64,000 nucleotides of DNA from Gemmatimonadales bacterium (lineage in GTDB: Bacteria; Gemmatimonadota; Gemmatimonadetes; Gemmatimonadales; GWC2-71-9): NCBI GenBank assembly GCA_041615815.1, contig JBFJCP010000020.1, positions 1-64,000 of the forward strand. The letters run 5' to 3'. A model generated the notes under the pieces. The model had not been told where the DNA came from. It searched no databases and saw only the letters and a program-made list of their open reading frames with translations. The position numbers and the translations under genes were made by a program. This document shows, piece by piece, positions 125 through 11,317 of this stretch (positions are counted from its first letter, which is position 1; every line of letters begins with the position of its first letter).

Positions 125-243
125 GGTGTCTGGCTCCTCAAATGGTGAACTGCCCCGCTGTGGCTGCCGCAATCCCGACGGCGCCACTGGACTCGCGGCC
201 GATCAACGTCCCCATTACTCCCCCACCACTGTCACCGATCCAG

Positions 244-315
<72 letters not shown>

Positions 316-320
316 TAGGA

Positions 321-393
321 AGCGGGCGACGGGATTCGAACCCGCGACCCTCAGCTTGGAAGGCTGATGCTCTACCATCTGAGCTACACCCGC
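321..393 (-). tRNA. tRNA-Gly(TCC)
   Basis: GCGGGTGTAGCTCAGATGGTAGAGC..GCCTTCCAAGC..GGTTCGAATCC. Confidence 0.95.
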
Positions 394-433
394 GCTGTCC
401 GTGTCCCACAATCCACCCGATCGCTGACATCCA

Positions 434-516
434 TGGTGGGGGTAGGATTCGAACCTACGTAGGCATTCGCCGGCAGATTTACAGTCTGCTCCCTTTGGCC
501 GCTCGGGCACCCCACC
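434..516 (-). tRNA. tRNA-Tyr(GTA)
   Basis: GGTGGGGTGCCCGAGCGGCCAAAGGG..GACTGTAAATC, long variable arm, GGTTCGAATCC. Confidence 0.95.
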
Positions 517-588
517 GTTGCCCGCTGTGGCGCAAACACGGCCAAACGCACACCCCTCTCGGGGCGCGTCGCCCGCCCGCGCCGGTCA

Positions 589-664
589 TGGAGCTGACGA
601 AGGGACTCGAACCCTTAACCTGCTGATTACAAATCAGCTGCTCTACCAGTTGAGCTACGTCAGC
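589..664 (-). tRNA. tRNA-Thr(TGT)
   Basis: GCTGACGTAGCTCAACTGGTAGAGC..GATTTGTAATC..GGTTCGAGTCC, encoded CCA; Thr-Tyr-Gly-Thr-tuf order as in the E. coli tufB operon. Confidence 0.95.
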
Positions 665-4057: not shown

Positions 4058-4264
4058 CTACTCAAGAGCGCACAACCCTCCGCGAATGATGTAGCACCAT
4101 CCACGGAGCGCGGACGCGTATATCCCCCCGCCGGGGAAGTCCGCATTGCACGAATCGATCGCCTCCTGGAGGCAGGGCTTCCCGGCCGCCGCTTCGGCGG
4201 GAGAGGCATAGGGCAGCACCGTGAGGGCCGCCGTCACCAAAGCGAGATGCAGTAAGCGTTTCAC
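4058..4264 (-). CDS. Small secreted peptide with twin CX7C motifs
   Basis: GGAGGAGG RBS before GTG; Sec-type signal ending AEA; mature part CLQEAIDSC-X17-CYIIRGGLC. Confidence 0.7.
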   Translation of the reverse strand: MKRLLHLALVTAALTVLPYASPAEAAAGKPCLQEAIDSCNADFPGGGIYASALRGWCYIIRGGLCALE

Positions 4265-4387
4265 GTCGTCCTCCTCCACATCGGGGTGGGGTTGGGACCA
4301 ACCGAGCGGTTGCCCCGTTGGGACGGCGTGAGGATAGGAGTTGTCGGGTTCGGCGGTGTGATCCGACGGGTGCGGCGAAGAGCGTTT

Positions 4388-5533
4388 TTACGCCGACGGC
4401 TGGGCGGGCGCAGCCTCGGTGGTCGTCGGAACGGCGATGATGGGACGCTCACCGGTCTTGGTGTCGACGAGCACGGCAGCGGTCACACGCGTCATGTCCA
4501 GCTCATGATAGATCTCGCTGAAGAGCACGTCGCGAATGACGACCATGGTGACCGCGAGTGCGGGGACGGCCACCACCAGACCGAGCGGGCCGAGCAACGT
4601 CGCCATGATGAGCACGCTGGCAATGGTCAGCACGGGCGGCAAGTTGACCCGGTGCTCAAAGATCACAGGAGCAACGACGTTGGCTTCGACGAGGTGCACC
4701 ACCACACCGAGCCCCGCCACCGCCAGCGCATGCACCCATCCACCGATACCGAGGACCAATAACGCCGGGAGGATCGTGGAGATGATGGTGCCGAAGAACG
4801 GCACGATGGCCACCACTCCGGTGAACACCCCAAAGGCCAGCGCATAGGGAACGCGGAGGGCCAGGAGACCCACCCAGGTGAGGATGCCGAGCACCAGCAT
4901 AGCGAAGAGCTGGGCCCAGATCCAGGTACGGAGCGTGATGGCAAGGTCTGCGAGTGTGGTCCGAGCGATGTGGCGTACCTTGGGCGGAAACAGGGCGATG
5001 AGCCCCTCGCGGTATCGCGAGGGGTTGCGGGCCAGGTAGATCGCCATGGCCAGCACGCTGATCAGCTCAACCGCGAGTTTGCCCCCGGAGGCGAGGTAGT
5101 TGAAGACGGAGCCCCGCATGGCGTCGATCAGCGAGCCCACCAAGCCACCCCCTTGCCCACCGGCGGTCATCCGCTCGAACACCGGATACTCCTGCGCGAG
5201 CTCCACCATGATCCGATCGAGGCCTTGTGCGTAACCGGGGAGCGCACCGACCAGATCTTGAACCTGTCGGACAAACAGCGGCACGATCAGCGCGCCGACA
5301 CCCGCGGCGCCGATCAAGGTGACCAGGATGGCCACCGTGAGTGAGACCGCGCGGCTCAGCCGCGCGTGGTGTACCAGGACGTCGGTGATGGCGGAGAAAT
5401 AGATCGCGACGATCGCCGCGATGAAAATGAGAAGCAGGACTTCTCGGACGTGGCTCAGGAAGATCAGAAGGAGGACGGCGACGAACAGCGCCGCCACCGT
5501 CCCGGCCAGCCGACGCCAGCCGACGTCGCTCAC
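4388..5533 (-). CDS. AI-2E (PerM) family transporter
   Basis: Multi-TM; IVPFFG, EANVVAP, LGPLGLVVAVP motifs; start overlaps the pspA stop. Confidence 0.9.
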   Translation of the reverse strand: MSDVGWRRLAGTVAALFVAVLLLIFLSHVREVLLLIFIAAIVAIYFSAITDVLVHHARLSRAVSLTVAILVTLIGAAGVGALIVPLFVRQVQDLVGALPGYAQGLDRIMVELAQEYPVFERMTAGGQGGGLVGSLIDAMRGSVFNYLASGGKLAVELISVLAMAIYLARNPSRYREGLIALFPPKVRHIARTTLADLAITLRTWIWAQLFAMLVLGILTWVGLLALRVPYALAFGVFTGVVAIVPFFGTIISTILPALLVLGIGGWVHALAVAGLGVVVHLVEANVVAPVIFEHRVNLPPVLTIASVLIMATLLGPLGLVVAVPALAVTMVVIRDVLFSEIYHELDMTRVTAAVLVDTKTGERPIIAVPTTTEAAPAQPSA

Positions 5534-6309
5534 TAACCCTCCCGGCTGGCGTCGTTGTCTTCGATGACCTCAGCGTCCGTGACGTCTTCCCCGTCGTCGT
5601 CCCCACCCGGCAACTGCCTCCGTGCCTCACCGGGAGGAAGCACGCCCATCCGCTCTTTCAGCTCCAACAGTTGCTGATCGGCGCTCCCCTTGAACTCGAG
5701 CTCCTCGAACTGGCGAGACAGGGTGTCGCCGGTCAGTTCACCCGCCAGCTCGGCTGCCGCCAGTGCCTGCTGCTCCATCTCCTCGATCCGCTCCTCCATC
5801 CGCTGAAAGCGCTCGAAGGCGCTGCTCTCGTTGATGGTGGACATGGTCTCGCGGATTCTCGTCTGCGCCTGTGCACGTTTTTGCCGCGCCACGAGCAGGT
5901 TCTTCTTGCGCTTGGCTTCTTCAATGCGATCGTTGAGCTCCCGAAGGGAGTCCTTCAACGACTCGGTGTCCGCTTTGTGGCGCAGCCACGTCTCGTGCAG
6001 CTGCTGCGCGTGCTGCAAGTGCTCGTTGTGGCGCATGAGCGCCTGCTTGGCGAGATCGTCACGCCCCTCCTGCACCGCCAACATGGCACGCCGCTCCCAC
6101 TCGTCGGCGGCCTTTTTCTCTTTCTCCACCTGCGCTTGCAGCTTCTTCTCGTCGGCGATGGCGGCGGCCACGTCCTGTTTGGTCTTGGCCAGCTGCCCGC
6201 GCATCTCGAGCAGCAGCTGATCCAAGACTTTTTCGGGATTCTCGGCCCGGCCAATGAGCGCGTTGATGTTCGCCTTGATGACCGTCATGAGACGTTGGAA
6301 AATGCCCAT
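5533..6309 (-). CDS. pspA: PspA/IM30 family protein
   Basis: MGIFQRL..IKANINALI..AENPEK, coiled coil, GRDDLAKQAL, SAFERFQRMEERI. Confidence 0.95.
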   Translation of the reverse strand: MGIFQRLMTVIKANINALIGRAENPEKVLDQLLLEMRGQLAKTKQDVAAAIADEKKLQAQVEKEKKAADEWERRAMLAVQEGRDDLAKQALMRHNEHLQHAQQLHETWLRHKADTESLKDSLRELNDRIEEAKRKKNLLVARQKRAQAQTRIRETMSTINESSAFERFQRMEERIEEMEQQALAAAELAGELTGDTLSRQFEELEFKGSADQQLLELKERMGVLPPGEARRQLPGGDDDGEDVTDAEVIEDNDASREG

Positions 6310-6390
6310 AATCGGAAGCTCGCCTCCGGATGCGGCGTCCGTGCCCCGGCGGCGGCGGACGCTCGGTCAGAGCTAGTAGTCGCAGTCGGC

Positions 6391-6666
6391 CTAGTCGAGA
6401 CCGGTCGACTGAGGGATCGCCTCCCGACGACGCATAGCGGTCAACGCCCGTTCCGTAAAATCCACCCGCTCGCCGAGGTCGTAGACCTCGGCCCGTAAAC
6501 CAGTCACGGCGTGTGCCAAATCGTCGACCGACTCCTGCAACCGCCGTATCGATTCGTCATCAGCTGGCGCCCGCCGTCTCGCCACCATTTGGCGGCGGCC
6601 GTGCGGCGATCGAAACCAGCAGACCGCGCAGGCCGCGATCGCCATGGCAATGAACATGAATCCCAT
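6391..6666 (-). CDS. Small single-TM coiled-coil protein, PspB-like array member 6
   Basis: N-terminal TM; ERVDFTERAL; RBS GGGAG. Confidence 0.8.
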   Translation of the reverse strand: MGFMFIAMAIAACAVCWFRSPHGRRQMVARRRAPADDESIRRLQESVDDLAHAVTGLRAEVYDLGERVDFTERALTAMRRREAIPQSTGLD

Positions 6667-6751
6667 CGTGAATCTCCCTGGCGAGTAAGATCTCCCGTTA
6701 CCCGTCCGGCCGCCACTCGCGGCCGACCACCGGGCCCTCCACACGCCACCG

Positions 6752-6778
6752 TACGTGTAATGATGCCCCGCCGTTTCA
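6752..6778 (-). promoter_or_regulatory. Putative ECF sigma promoter
   Basis: TGAAAC-N17-CGTA, close to the B. subtilis SigW consensus TGAAAC-N16-CGTA, upstream of member 6 and pspA. Confidence 0.5.
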
Positions 6779-6807
6779 GCAGGGAACACACGCTGGCTAT
6801 TCGCGCG

Positions 6808-7098
6808 CTAGGCGCCCTGGGATGTCCCTTCCCGAGGAAAGCGGTCCGACTCCCGCGACTGCGAGAGAAGCCGCTCGGTGAAATCGAGACGCTCTTGCAC
6901 CTCTGACAGCTCTCCTCGAAGCTGGTCCAGCTCCTCCTGGACGGCGATGTGCGACTCCCAGAGCTTTTCAAAGGCCTTATCCGCTCCTCGCGGCCCCGAG
7001 CGGATCCGGTCGGCGATGGCCCGGCCAACCGGGGAGATGGCGAGCAGGAAGGCGCTCATGCCGCCAAACAGCAGCGTGATGGCGAGGATGTCCTCCAC
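6808..7098 (-). CDS. Small single-TM coiled-coil protein, PspB-like array member 5
   Basis: N-terminal TM; QERLDFTERLL. Confidence 0.85.
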   Translation of the reverse strand: MEDILAITLLFGGMSAFLLAISPVGRAIADRIRSGPRGADKAFEKLWESHIAVQEELDQLRGELSEVQERLDFTERLLSQSRESDRFPREGTSQGA

Positions 7099-7104
7099 GC
7101 CGCC

Positions 7105-7401
7105 CTACCCATCGACTCCCGGCAGCTGCTGACTCTTCGAACGCGCCAGGACGCGCTCGGTGAAATCCAACCGCTCCTCGACCTCCGCCAGCCGGTCCCG
7201 GAGATCGTCGACCCCCGCGAGCTGACGGCGCACGGTATCCAGCTCCGCCTTGAGCGCTGCGGCGTCTCCGCCGGGGAGGCGATCCGCGCGGCGCTCCAGC
7301 TGGCGACCGATCAGCTTCAGGATATGCCAGCCAAAGAACGTGGCCATCCCCATTCCCAGAATGGGGAAGACGACGTTCTGAATCCAGATCCAGCTCGGCA
7401 T
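7105..7401 (-). CDS. Small single-TM coiled-coil protein, PspB-like array member 4
   Basis: N-terminal TM; EERLDFTERVL. Confidence 0.85.
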   Translation of the reverse strand: MPSWIWIQNVVFPILGMGMATFFGWHILKLIGRQLERRADRLPGGDAAALKAELDTVRRQLAGVDDLRDRLAEVEERLDFTERVLARSKSQQLPGVDG

Positions 7402-7443
7402 CGCGGACTCCCGCCTAGTGTGTTTTGGAGCGGTGGTGCGAGG

Positions 7444-7722
7444 TCAGCTATCCCCCTTTGCCAGCCGCGCGCGCTCCTGCTGTTGCGTGAGCATTCGCTC
7501 TGCAAAATCGACCCGCTCCTCGAGCTCGAACACGCGCTCTCGTTCTTGCTCCAGGACCTCGAGCCGAGTCCGCAGCTGATCCAATTCGGCACGAACCTCA
7601 TTGGGAGCCGCAGCATCCCGACTCCGGCCCTCGATCCGCCGGACGACGGCTCGTATCACCGGCAGCCCCAAAATGATTCCGGTCGCCATGCCCGCGAGGG
7701 GAATCAGAATATCCTCTAACAC
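7444..7722 (-). CDS. Small single-TM coiled-coil protein, PspB-like array member 3
   Basis: N-terminal TM; EERVDFAERML. Confidence 0.85.
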   Translation of the reverse strand: MLEDILIPLAGMATGIILGLPVIRAVVRRIEGRSRDAAAPNEVRAELDQLRTRLEVLEQERERVFELEERVDFAERMLTQQQERARLAKGDS

Positions 7723-7777
7723 GGGAGAATCTCGAGGCCCGCGGGTTGGTGCCAGGTGGCGCTGTGCGAGATGGCCC

Positions 7778-8044
7778 TCACTTGTCTCCTGGGAGACTTT
7801 CCCGCTGCCGGGCCTGGGCCAGCAAGCGCTCGGCGAAATCGAGACGCTCCTCCATCTCGGTCAGACGAAACTGCACGTCGTCCAGCACGGAGCGCACCTC
7901 GTGCCGCAGCTCCTCAAGCTCACGGCTCGGCGCGCCGCTGGATCCCCCGGCAATCCGCTCGCCCAGCGCCTTTCCGAAGGGCCCTCGGAAGATCGAAACG
8001 AGACCGATCATCACAAAGAGGGTAATGGGAATGAGCGCCTCCAT
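7778..8044 (-). CDS. Small single-TM coiled-coil protein, PspB-like array member 2
   Basis: N-terminal TM; RGPFGKALGER; EERLDFAERLL. Confidence 0.85.
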   Translation of the reverse strand: MEALIPITLFVMIGLVSIFRGPFGKALGERIAGGSSGAPSRELEELRHEVRSVLDDVQFRLTEMEERLDFAERLLAQARQRESLPGDK

Positions 8045-8046
8045 CG

Positions 8047-8307
8047 CTAATTCCGCGGGGGAAGCCGCTCACGCTCACGCGCAAGCACGCGCTCGGTGAA
8101 GTCCACCCGTTCCTCCATTTCGGTCAGACGGTAACGCAGGTCTTCCACCTCGCTCCGAAGCGCTTCCACATCCGGGGACCCGTCGCGCACCGATCCACCA
8201 CCGAGGCGTTCGCCCAGGGCTTTGCCAAACGGCCCGCGGAGAATCGCCACCGCCGCGATGGACACAAACAGCGTGATGGGGACCAAGAAGACTGCGACTT
8301 CTTCCAT
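8047..8307 (-). CDS. Small single-TM coiled-coil protein, PspB-like array member 1
   Basis: GAGGAGA RBS; TM; RGPFGKALGER; EERVDFTERVL. Confidence 0.85.
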   Translation of the reverse strand: MEEVAVFLVPITLFVSIAAVAILRGPFGKALGERLGGGSVRDGSPDVEALRSEVEDLRYRLTEMEERVDFTERVLARERERLPPRN

Positions 8308-8476
8308 TGAATACCGTCTCCTCGGAGCCCTGCGGCCCGTTCCTGGGCCGGACCCGCTCGGTACGAACGACCCGCTCCCTGAGTTCAGCGACCTCGTTTT
8401 GGGGGCGGCGACCGCCCTATGCAACTACGGTCGCCGTTTCCCTTAGTGTCAACCACGCACCCACGATGCGCAACCG

Positions 8477-11317
8477 TCAGTCGGCCAGAATCTTTCTGAG
8501 GAACGCCCCAGTGTGCGACGCCGAGTTCTGCACGACGGCCTCCGGCGGTCCGGCAACCACGACCGCCCCCCCGGCGTCACCGCCGCCCGGACCGAGATCC
8601 ACCACCCAGTCAGCGGTCTTGACCACCTCGAGGTTGTGCTCGATGACGATCACCGTGTTCCCCCTGTCGACCAGGCGATGCAGCACGGTGAGCAGGAGGC
8701 GGACATCTTCGAAATGGAGCCCGGTGGTGGGCTCGTCCAGGATGTACAGCGTACGTCCCGTGTCCCGCTTACTCAGCTCCGTGGCGAGCTTGACGCGCTG
8801 CGCTTCGCCGCCGGAAAGCGTGGTCGCACTTTGTCCCAGATGCAGGTAGCCGAGTCCTACGTCGTTCAAGAGCTCCAGCCGGTTTCGGATCCGAGGCTGC
8901 GCATCGAAGAACTCGAGGGCATCGGCCACGGTCATCTCGAGGACGTCCGCAATGGACCGTCCCTTGTAGCGGACCTCGAGGGTCTCTCGATTGTAGCGCC
9001 GGCCTTTACACACGTCGCATGAGACGTAGACGTCGGGCAGAAAGTGCATCTCGATCTTGACGAGACCATCACCTTGGCAGGATTCACACCGGCCGCCCTT
9101 GACATTGAACGAAAAGCGGCCGGGCCCATACCCCCGAATCTTCGATTCCGCGAGTTGCGCATAGAGCTCGCGGATGGGTGTAAAGAGTCCCGTGTACGTG
9201 GCTGGATTGGAGCGTGGGGTCCGGCCAATGGGGCTTTGATCGATATCGAGCACTTTGTCGAGCTGATCGAGCCCCTCGAGCCGGTCATGAGCACCCGGTA
9301 GGGTCTTGGCCCGATAGAGGTGTCGGGCCAACGCTCGGTACAGCACGTCCGTCACCAGCGTGGATTTCCCGGACCCCGATACGCCGGTGACGGCGACGAA
9401 GACTCCGAGGGGGAACTGCACGTCCAGTCGGCGGAGGTTGTGCTGGGAGGCACCCACAACCGTGAGCGTGCGGTTGCTGTCAACGGGCCGGCGCGCCGAG
9501 GGGATCGGGATGCGGAGCTCTCGGCGGAGGTATCGGCCGGTCAGCGACCCGGCGTGCGCGAGGACGGCGTCCACGGTTCCATCGACGATTACCTCGCCTC
9601 CGTCTCGCCCCGCCCGGGGGCCCAAGTCGATGACATGATCGGCCGAGCGGATGGTCTCTTCGTCGTGTTCCACCACGATCACGGTATTGCCCAAATCCCT
9701 GAGACCACGGAGCGTGTCGAGCAAACGGGCGTTGTCCCGCGGGTGGAGCCCCACGGACGGCTCATCGAGCACGTAGAGCACCCCCACCAAACGGCTTCCG
9801 ATCTGGGTGGCGAGCCGAATGCGCTGCGCCTCGCCGCCGGACAGCGACGACGCCGATCGTCCGAGGGTCAAATACTCGAGCCCGACATCGCACAAGAACC
9901 GCAGTCGATCCACCACTTCCTTCAGGATCGGGCCGGCGATGTCGGCTTGGACCCCGGTGTTGCCGTTCGATTGCAGCGGCAGGGTATCGAAGAAATCCAG
10001 CGCCGCGCGCACCGGGACGGCCGTCAGTTCGCCAATGCTGTTTCCGCCCACCAGGACACTGAGGCTCTCCGACTTGAGTCGGTGCCCGCCACAGGTATCG
10101 CAGGGCACTTCGGTCATGTACTCCTCGAGCTGCACCCGGACGGCGTCCGAGGTGGTCTCGCGGTAGCGACGGTCCACATTGGTGAGAATTCCCTCCCACT
10201 CGGCTTCATAGCTCCGTTTGGTACCGGTGCGAAACCGAAACATCTTGCCCGAGACCCCGTGCAGCAGGGCTCGGGTGATCTTGGCCGGCAGCTCTCCCCA
10301 CGGCCGGCCCGGATCGAACCCCAATTCCGTGCCCAGCGTGGGAATGACCGTGTTCTTGAGATACCCGTGCGGCTCACCCCACGGCAGCACCACTCCCTCG
10401 AGCAGGGAGATGCGGGGGTCGCCCAGCACCAGGTCGGGGCTCACTTCCCGTCTCGTGCCCAGGCCGCCACAGTCGGCGCACGCGCCGTAGGGCGAGTTGA
10501 ACGAGAACTGCCGTGGCTCCAGCTCGGCAAGTGAATAGCCGCATTGTGGACAGGCGAATTGCTCAGAGAAGAGGGTCACCGCTTCGCTGGTGCCATGGCG
10601 GATGACTTGGGCGAGCCCATCGGCGGCGCGGAGCGCTGTTTCGATGGAATCCCCGAGCCGGCGGTGGTCGTCGGGCCGCACCACGAGGCGGTCCACGACG
10701 AGCCCGATCTCATGATTGACCCGGCGGTTGAGCTTGGGCGGTTTGGCCAAGTCATGCACCGTGCCGTCGACCCGAACGCGAACGAACCCCTGGCGTCGAG
10801 CGCTCTCGAAGAGATCTTTGAACTCACCCTTGCGTCCCCGCACGAGGGGCGCGACGATCTCAATCTTGGTGCCCTGGGGCCAGGCCAACACGGCTTCTGT
10901 GATCTGTGACGCACTCTGTCGTTGGATGGGGGACCCATCTTTGGGACAGTGCGGGGTCCCGGCCCGGGCCCACAGGAGTCGGAGGTAATCGTAGATCTCG
11001 GTCACGGTCCCGACCGTCGACCGGGGGTTATGTCCTGCCGTCTTCTGTTCGATAGAAATAGCAGGGGAGAGCCCATCGATGCCGTCGACATCGGGCTTCT
11101 CCATCAGACCGAGGAATTGCCGAGCATAGGCGGACAGCGACTCCACGTATCGCCGCTGTCCCTCGGCGTAAATAGTGTCGAAGGCGAGGGATGATTTGCC
11201 GGACCCCGAGAGCCCAGTGATCACTGTGAGACGGTTTCGCGGAATCTCCACGTCCACGTTTTTGAGATTGTGGACCCGAGCACCGCGAACCACGAGATTG
11301 TCGCGCACCATAACCAT
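8477..11317 (-). CDS. uvrA: Excinuclease ABC subunit A
   Basis: Two ABC ATPase modules ([26 protein letters not shown]) and zinc fingers. Confidence 0.99.

Follow-up and report, generated by a model that had tools for sequence, protein, structure and literature searches.

A tandem array of divergent PspB-like membrane proteins upstream of pspA in a Gemmatimonadales bacterium, probably under extracytoplasmic-function sigma control

How bacterial ESCRT-III proteins are recruited to damaged membrane beyond Escherichia coli and Bacillus subtilis is the question on which the locus described here bears. Within a 64,000-nt stretch of DNA from a Gemmatimonadales bacterium (contig JBFJCP010000020.1; the whole stretch is referred to below as the window), six consecutive minus-strand open reading frames (ORFs) of 86-98 amino acids (aa), each with one predicted transmembrane (TM) segment and a common tail, lie directly upstream of pspA, which encodes the ESCRT-III-like protein PspA/IM30 and is itself overlapped by an AI-2E transporter gene. 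Coordinates, hydropathy and matches to PF04012 and PF01594 bear out this layout, which an initial annotation had read from the DNA letters, and the cluster lies entirely on the minus strand. The locus is best filed with the multi-PspB psp operons already known, among which it stands apart through a divergent family, its position upstream of pspA, the lack of linked PspC or PspF, and probable control by an extracytoplasmic-function (ECF) sigma factor.

The array and its linkage to pspA

Each array ORF contains a single hydrophobic 19-mer (Kyte-Doolittle 1.65-2.73; next best at most 0.26) with 3-6 K/R residues directly behind it. An AlphaFold model of member 2, built on a 137-row alignment (pLDDT 87, pTM 0.47), places a membrane-length helix at residues 4-20, a short one at 22-33 and a long one at 39-83. 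By hydropathy, charge pattern and this model, the array members are predicted to have the topology of PspB, one N-terminal TM helix and then a cytoplasmic alpha-helical domain; behind the single membrane helix, the predicted cytoplasmic tail would contain a short helix and then an extended coiled coil. A Foldseek comparison of the model with the PDB returned no matches. The tail, E-R-x-D-F-x-E-R-x-L, is invariant across all six members. It is not a chance occurrence, since the pattern ER[LVIM]DF[TAVLMS]ER occurs 12 times among the 58,853 six-frame ORFs of the genome and all 12 occurrences fall in family members. Pairwise identity among the six is 24-44%, except for members 1 and 2 (61%), and the codon-position GC content of the array ORFs is similar to that of pspA and uvrA. 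From member 1 to pspA the intergenic gaps, calculated from coordinates, are 2, 55, 42, 6, 141 and 81 bases; no terminator-like sites were found from uvrA to the end of pspA, the sole copy of pspA detected in this genome.

The linkage seen in this one window holds across genomes. When 61 genomes of the phylum were searched with a six-row profile, matches were obtained in 31/31 genomes of the bacterium's own family (f1), in 9/15 from the rest of the class and in 0/15 from other classes, where pspA itself was matched in just 2/15. The pspA regions were then compared at 47 loci (31 f1 and 16 others; apart from G014, where the match was weak, and a fragmentary pspA of G033), with matches <150 bases apart merged and counts at contig ends taken as minima. 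In all 31 f1 genomes, this one included, 2-12 members stand directly upstream of pspA; at the 16 other loci, one divergent member is present in 2 and none in 14, and the second, distant PspA of G041 has no array member beside it. At least 80 further loci, some perhaps from genomes of the first set, came from a species collection, where the tail pattern served to select them; the record titles name Gemmatimonadota or one of its sub-taxa for 79 of the 80 and only an unnamed bacterium for the other. Sixty-five of these have pspA downstream (64 arrays and one single gene), 12 are arrays ending <=1,200 bases from the locus end, and three are single genes without pspA. All 64 arrays with enough downstream sequence thus include pspA, and copy number reaches 14. 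As in the pspFABC system, the array is encoded with pspA. The linkage shows a conserved ancestral layout and not many origins, because kin genomes are not independent.

The usual gene order is uvrA - (sdaA or DPP-IV gene) - array - (CesT_Tir_1 gene) - pspA - AI-2E - DUF1611. In 11/31 f1 loci the CesT_Tir_1 gene (PF22550, E 6e-26) separates the array from pspA, and in 12 of the 16 others it precedes pspA; it is absent from 20/31 f1 array loci, and no CesT-like gene was found in the present genome. In wider searches, a six-sequence profile recovered 4,998 proteins among 7,996 scored candidates, and the taxon-named entries among the best 120 of these matches are Gemmatimonadetes, with no Pfam label among those listed; a 137-row profile recovered 4,185 representatives at 50% clustering.

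The paralogues are old and have been retained, as the best BLAST match of 125/135 members lies in another genome; with congeners left out, it lies in another genus for 119/135. Member 5 falls into a 28-row subfamily found across the family (support 90) in a quick tree of 99 columns with many open forks, whose 135-row set lacks window members 2 and 4. The initial annotation took the blocks shared by members 1 and 2 (PITLFV..RGPFGKALGER and RLTEMEER) as a sign of recent duplication. The blocks are present as described; the recent duplication was rejected, since a shared codon underlies just 19 of the 49 identical residues and closer relatives of each protein (71-78% identity) occur elsewhere. 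Their split is the youngest in this array, though not recent. Split or truncated copies, from either gene turnover or assembly error, occur in L036, L032, L033, L065, L066 and on contig C16 of this genome (G000).

Table 1. Genes and putative promoter motifs of the array-pspA cluster (positions in the window)
Feature	Position	Strand	Remarks
Array member 1	8047..8307	-	86 aa; predicted to have a TM segment, a short helix and a coiled coil (ERVDFTER)
Array member 2	7778..8044	-	88 aa; start 2 nt past member 1 stop
Array member 3	7444..7722	-	92 aa; GTG start, weak ribosome site
Array member 4	7105..7401	-	98 aa
Array member 5	6808..7098	-	96 aa; GTG start; in most widespread subfamily (28/135 rows)
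Array member 6	6391..6666	-	91 aa
pspA (PspA/IM30, ESCRT-III-like)	5533..6309	-	258 aa; PF04012, E 4e-44
AI-2E family transporter	4388..5533	-	PF01594, E 6e-55; 1-base overlap with pspA stop; frequent downstream neighbour
uvrA	8477..11317	-	conserved upstream neighbour; synteny marker, probably outside the system
P1, SigW-type ECF promoter motif TGACAC-N16-CGTA	8426..8451	-	between uvrA and member 1; putative function, from consensus and conservation
P2, ECF promoter motif TGAAAC-N17-CGTA	6752..6778	-	before member 6 and pspA

Beyond the AI-2E gene, a 73-aa ORF (4058-4279, minus strand) with a signal-peptide-like start and four cysteines has no Pfam or NCBIfam match, and similar ORFs occupy the same place in L033 and L069. 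A tRNA cluster, Thr(TGT)-Tyr-Gly-Thr(GGT), lies at 243-664 (minus strand), next to ORFs that by eye we take to be cysS-like (758-2197) and MscS-like (2194-2994).

Relationship to PspB

The PspB-like nature proposed in the initial annotation is retained in a remote form. Among NCBIfam models, the PspB model TIGR02976 is the commonest match of 137 family members (41 at E<=0.1, best 8.7e-7), with 13.9-24.7 bits among the matching relatives listed, against a cut-off of 51.7; Pfam PspB matches 3/137. Comparison with sphingomonads is more informative. In Sphingomonas parapaucimobilis (NZ_CP155749.1; L170:3212-4092), pspFABC is followed by three small unannotated membrane coiled-coil genes, two of which match TIGR02976 weakly. 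The top two matches of the array family profile in the 880-kb Sphingomonas record are two extra genes behind pspABC (E 6.6e-5 and 2e-4; 7 candidates scored). In the reverse direction, a profile of the three Sphingomonas extras places the 15 family ORFs of the present genome at ranks 1-7, 9-11, 15, 42, 63, 70 and 73 of 58,853. Profiles of PspB only and of the PspC tail only are far worse at retrieving the family, with best ranks of 15 and 14, respectively. One of the Sphingomonas extras, used as a single query, retrieved itself only. The PspB-side profiles are shallow, the collected PspBs being enterobacterial near-copies (the best 120 of 849, all 72-100% identical), plasmid copies and one Sphingomonas record. 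The nearest Pfam-labelled clusters in the ESM Atlas are PspB at 0.76 (45-49% of members), which is a lead only. Taken from profile comparisons, homology of the family to PspB-type genes appears probable, and the array family likely sits on a divergent branch within the PspB domain.

Two narrower assignments were rejected: strict membership of PspB, for which the curated cut-offs failed, and homology to the PspC tail, whose similarity to the family is not significant. A search for longer forms gave 18 matches, and the 12 examined are mostly run-together array genes, several of them evidently frameshifted; none of these 12 is a PspC fusion, which is weak evidence. As a separate observation, pspB is carried on 454 plasmid records, mostly from Klebsiella and Enterobacter, of which 311 are typed conjugative.

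The lack of pspC and pspF, noted earlier for the window, extends to the genome. Its only PspC domain (PF04024) is on contig C24, unlinked to the array, in a protein that ends right after the domain; no pspC with a cytoplasmic tail was found in the operon, and no ECF motif in the 700 bases examined at the PspC gene. Twelve NtrC-type matches in the genome include none above the PspF cut-off (TIGR02974).

Promoter motifs and a SigW-like sigma factor

The strict motif TGA[A/C]AC-N16/17-CGTA has two sites in the 64-kb window, P1 and P2 of Table 1, and both are in the array-pspA cluster. It matches the B. subtilis SigW consensus of the TGAAAC/CGTA type (PMC5758882), and B. subtilis pspA-samGHI is described as being under SigW regulation (PMC13713150); the array operon is likewise preceded by a SigW-type promoter sequence (TGAAAC-N16/17-CGTA). 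On the sense strand the strict motif is present in 24/31 f1 loci and in 3/16 other pspA loci (antisense, 0/48), and in 66/77 further array or pspA-linked loci (antisense, 0/80). An internal site at the place equivalent to P2 recurs in L033, L050, L059, L063, L064, L069, L070 and L072. A sigma-70 scan gave no promoter-like sites, and no sigma-54 pattern of the kind that goes with PspF control was found at 5500-8600. The array and pspA are, from motif conservation, probably under ECF-sigma control.

An 8-bp inverted repeat, GGCGACCG / CGGTCGCC (about 8404-8432, minus strand), encloses the -10 box of P1 and could serve promoter occlusion or form a hairpin after uvrA.

The best ECF match in the genome (contig C19:40405-40914) is nearest to SigW (E 6e-42), and 45/45 other genomes of the class contain one single-copy orthologue. 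The motif stands just behind this sigma gene in 29/30 loci and before it in 4/30; in the present genome (L160, C19:39825-40914) the sigma gene is followed by the motif and then by a gene for a membrane protein without Pfam match, which is a candidate anti-sigma factor. A genome-wide regulon drawn from the motif alone was rejected, as chance would account for roughly half of the sites. Among the ORFs downstream of genome-wide sites, 16 of 27 were scanned and include two outer-membrane efflux proteins, two MacB/FtsX permeases, M48 and M16 peptidases, a VTT-domain protein and a DUF418 protein, together with a kinase, a GNAT protein, a TetR protein and two without match.

PspA recruitment and competing explanations

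The explanation that we favour, by a little more than even chance, is that envelope stress leads to joint transcription of the array and pspA, starting at SigW-type promoters, and that the cytoplasmic coiled-coil tails pair and recruit or anchor PspA, replacing PspB-PspC. Envelope stress would free the SigW-like factor, which would drive the array and pspA from P1 and member 6 and pspA from P2; membrane-anchored members would then form pairs by way of their coiled coils and offer PspA the conserved tail at the inner membrane, taking over from PspB-PspC. The basis of this scheme is synteny, promoter conservation, remote homology and two results on PspC: in Yersinia, PspA is bound by the C-terminal domain of PspC and not by PspB (PMC5596341), and Ravi et al. 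2024 (PMC11237479) place the PspC tail among divergent PspB domains. Induction by the SigW-like sigma, oligomer formation and PspA recruitment are steps that we infer, as is a division of labour among the paralogues, with variable membrane segments and a constant tail; that tail would be a putative PspA-docking motif, as the initial annotation proposed. Regulation by the sigma factor would relieve the array of any need to release PspF, in which case it would act mainly as an effector or anchor. A complex prediction for PspA residues 1-225 with member 5 scored 0.00 in two runs with no controls folded, and is evidence neither way.

Several results weigh against this reading. Regarding kinship, the window members have no matches to the Pfam or NCBIfam PspB models, a genome search with PF06667 gave none, and no family member was seen to reach the curated hidden Markov model cut-off of PspB (PF06667/TIGR02976). 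The 137 members also match other NCBIfam models weakly, namely GspM (16) and CcmI (11), which are membrane coiled coils, and PspC (4). The hhalign probability of the family is 29 against E. coli PspB, a modest 64-73 against sets containing the Sphingomonas extras (about 30 coiled-coil tail columns, 3-6 template sequences), and nil (0.4-0.6) against the tail of PspC, which is the part known to bind PspA; among the five matches of the family profile in E. coli, pspB comes third (E 0.245). Regarding linkage, nine further family members lie elsewhere in this genome, away from pspA; in the five genomes tested from other families, a deeper profile finds 2-6 members apiece, of which one member only adjoins pspA; and PspA in 14 of the 16 non-f1 loci works without an adjacent array, because those loci have no member. 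Regarding control, the strict motif is missing from 7/31 f1 loci; genome-wide, 29 sites were seen where 16 were expected, a weak enrichment; the SigW-like sigma scores 143.5 bits against a SigW cut-off of 209; and the TGA of the motif behind the sigma gene is often the sigma stop codon.

The dispersed members are varied. One (L165, C8:71176-71649) fuses a TM2 domain (E 1.5e-17) to the family tail and has an ECF motif directly upstream; another (L164, C44:14203-14730) is a zinc-ribbon, membrane and family-tail protein, of which a second copy (L166, C16:58866-59684) is split over two frames; and one is a 289-codon ORF. Three adjoin ORFs that, by eye, we presume to be Ser/Thr kinases. A variant member with the tail EQTQFL (L169, C5:117184-117492) lies beside an ORF that we take, also by eye, to be MurJ-like; in G045 and G054, L169-like variants are the lone gene that precedes CesT-pspA, which may represent the ancestral state. 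A three-gene tandem of family members lies far from pspA in a genome from another family of the class (G045:C72:9273-10257). The family tail is thus a portable module that is not confined to pspA. Carried further, the PspB-type tail would in Gemmatimonadales be a portable ESCRT-III docking module, with up to 14 operon paralogues and the TM2, zinc-ribbon and other membrane-domain fusions acting as combinatorial adaptors that each sense a different lesion and bring a single PspA, under a SigW-like sigma. We consider this extension unlikely; if true, it would give bacteria an equivalent of the several adaptors by which eukaryotic ESCRT-III is targeted.

It is also possible, at roughly half the weight given to recruitment, that the array proteins act in envelope stress as PspB-type effectors, induced together with pspA yet not binding PspA, and that their mixed coiled-coil membrane complexes catch or seal leaking membrane proteins, each membrane segment serving a different client. 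Yersinia PspB-PspC offer a parallel in their relation to mislocalised secretins, PspBC alone being sufficient to counteract secretin toxicity (PMC5596341). The family resembles PspB, not the PspA-binding PspC tail, and the members away from pspA with their TM2 or zinc-ribbon fusions suit this account as well. It fits less easily with the near-perfect adjacency of arrays to pspA, with the internal promoter that couples the last member to pspA, and with the near-invariant tail (partly fixed by the selection pattern), which suggests one constant partner.

A more doubtful proposal is that the likeness to PspB is convergence upon an anchor and a coiled coil, that only an ECF regulon is shared with pspA, and that the tail binds a protease, an anti-sigma factor, the CesT-like protein or kinases. 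The unmet PspB cut-offs, the short alignments and the kinase-like ORFs beside three dispersed members would agree with this. Convergence is disfavoured because it would not explain matches falling inside a psp operon, and the reciprocal best matches fall in just such an operon of a proteobacterium; as the target of the tail, the CesT-like protein is countered by the absence of its gene from this genome, as far as it was searched for, and from most array loci. Finally, redundant copying of one small gene to mostly neutral effect, or an array that is not expressed, would accommodate copy numbers of 2 to 14 and the split or truncated copies, but is very improbable given subfamilies that persist across genera, conserved order, coupled starts and a tail conserved despite saturated codons.

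Recruitment of PspA by the array can be set beside several known systems. PspB duplicates have been described (Ravi et al. 2024, PMC11237479); section 17 and supplement row 118 of that work give, for Erythrobacter litoralis AOL22920.1, pspF and, set apart from it, pspA-PspB-PspC+PspB-4x SIG+PspB-PspB, with seven PspB domains. This operon, the ECF-type promoters and the nine dispersed members are points that go beyond the initial annotation. The Sphingomonadales multi-PspB operon shares with the present locus the tandem small PspB-domain membrane proteins in a pspA operon, and the S. parapaucimobilis extras are reciprocal best profile matches of the array family. Here, however, the array precedes pspA with no adjoining PspC or PspF; its tail is ER(L/V)DF(A/T)ER, in contrast to ERI..LER there; and a short helix follows the membrane segment, copies number up to 14, and an ECF-type motif lies upstream. 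The PspB of proteobacterial pspFABC (PF06667/TIGR02976) is alike in size, single N-terminal membrane helix, cytoplasmic coiled coil and pspA neighbourhood, and the weak model matches noted above point the same way, whereas the array falls below the curated cut-offs, has many copies and lacks a linked PspC, and no sigma-54 site or PspF was found.

In B. subtilis, PspA homologues are recruited by co-encoded membrane partners, and in pspA-samGHI (ydjGHI) and LiaI-LiaH, as here, a PspA homologue stands behind a TGAAAC/CGTA ECF promoter (PMC13713150, PMC7619361). The partners there differ, being an SPFH protein with TPM or other membrane proteins, or LiaI, and the Pfam and NCBIfam families listed for the array family include no match to them. 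The CesT/Tir-PspA dyad of Ravi et al. 2024 is shared in that the CesT_Tir_1 gene occurs at both array and other pspA loci; in the present genome that gene was not found, and the array is an addition to the dyad. The main text and one supplementary file of Ravi et al. 2024 (PMC11237479) contain no mention of "Gemmatimonad-", as is true of Popp et al. 2022 with seven small supplementary files, and the web app of the former and external data sets of the latter may list such loci; literature searches gave no title or abstract opening describing a Gemmatimonadota array.

The locus offers a natural series, in which variable membrane segments are combined with one constant short tail, a single pspA and a promoter that can be recognised; the phylum is common, though little studied. 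The array makes it testable whether the PspB-type helix is itself the docking site of PspA. It also ties a Gemmatimonadota family to unstudied extra psp genes of sphingomonads, which are culturable and manipulable.

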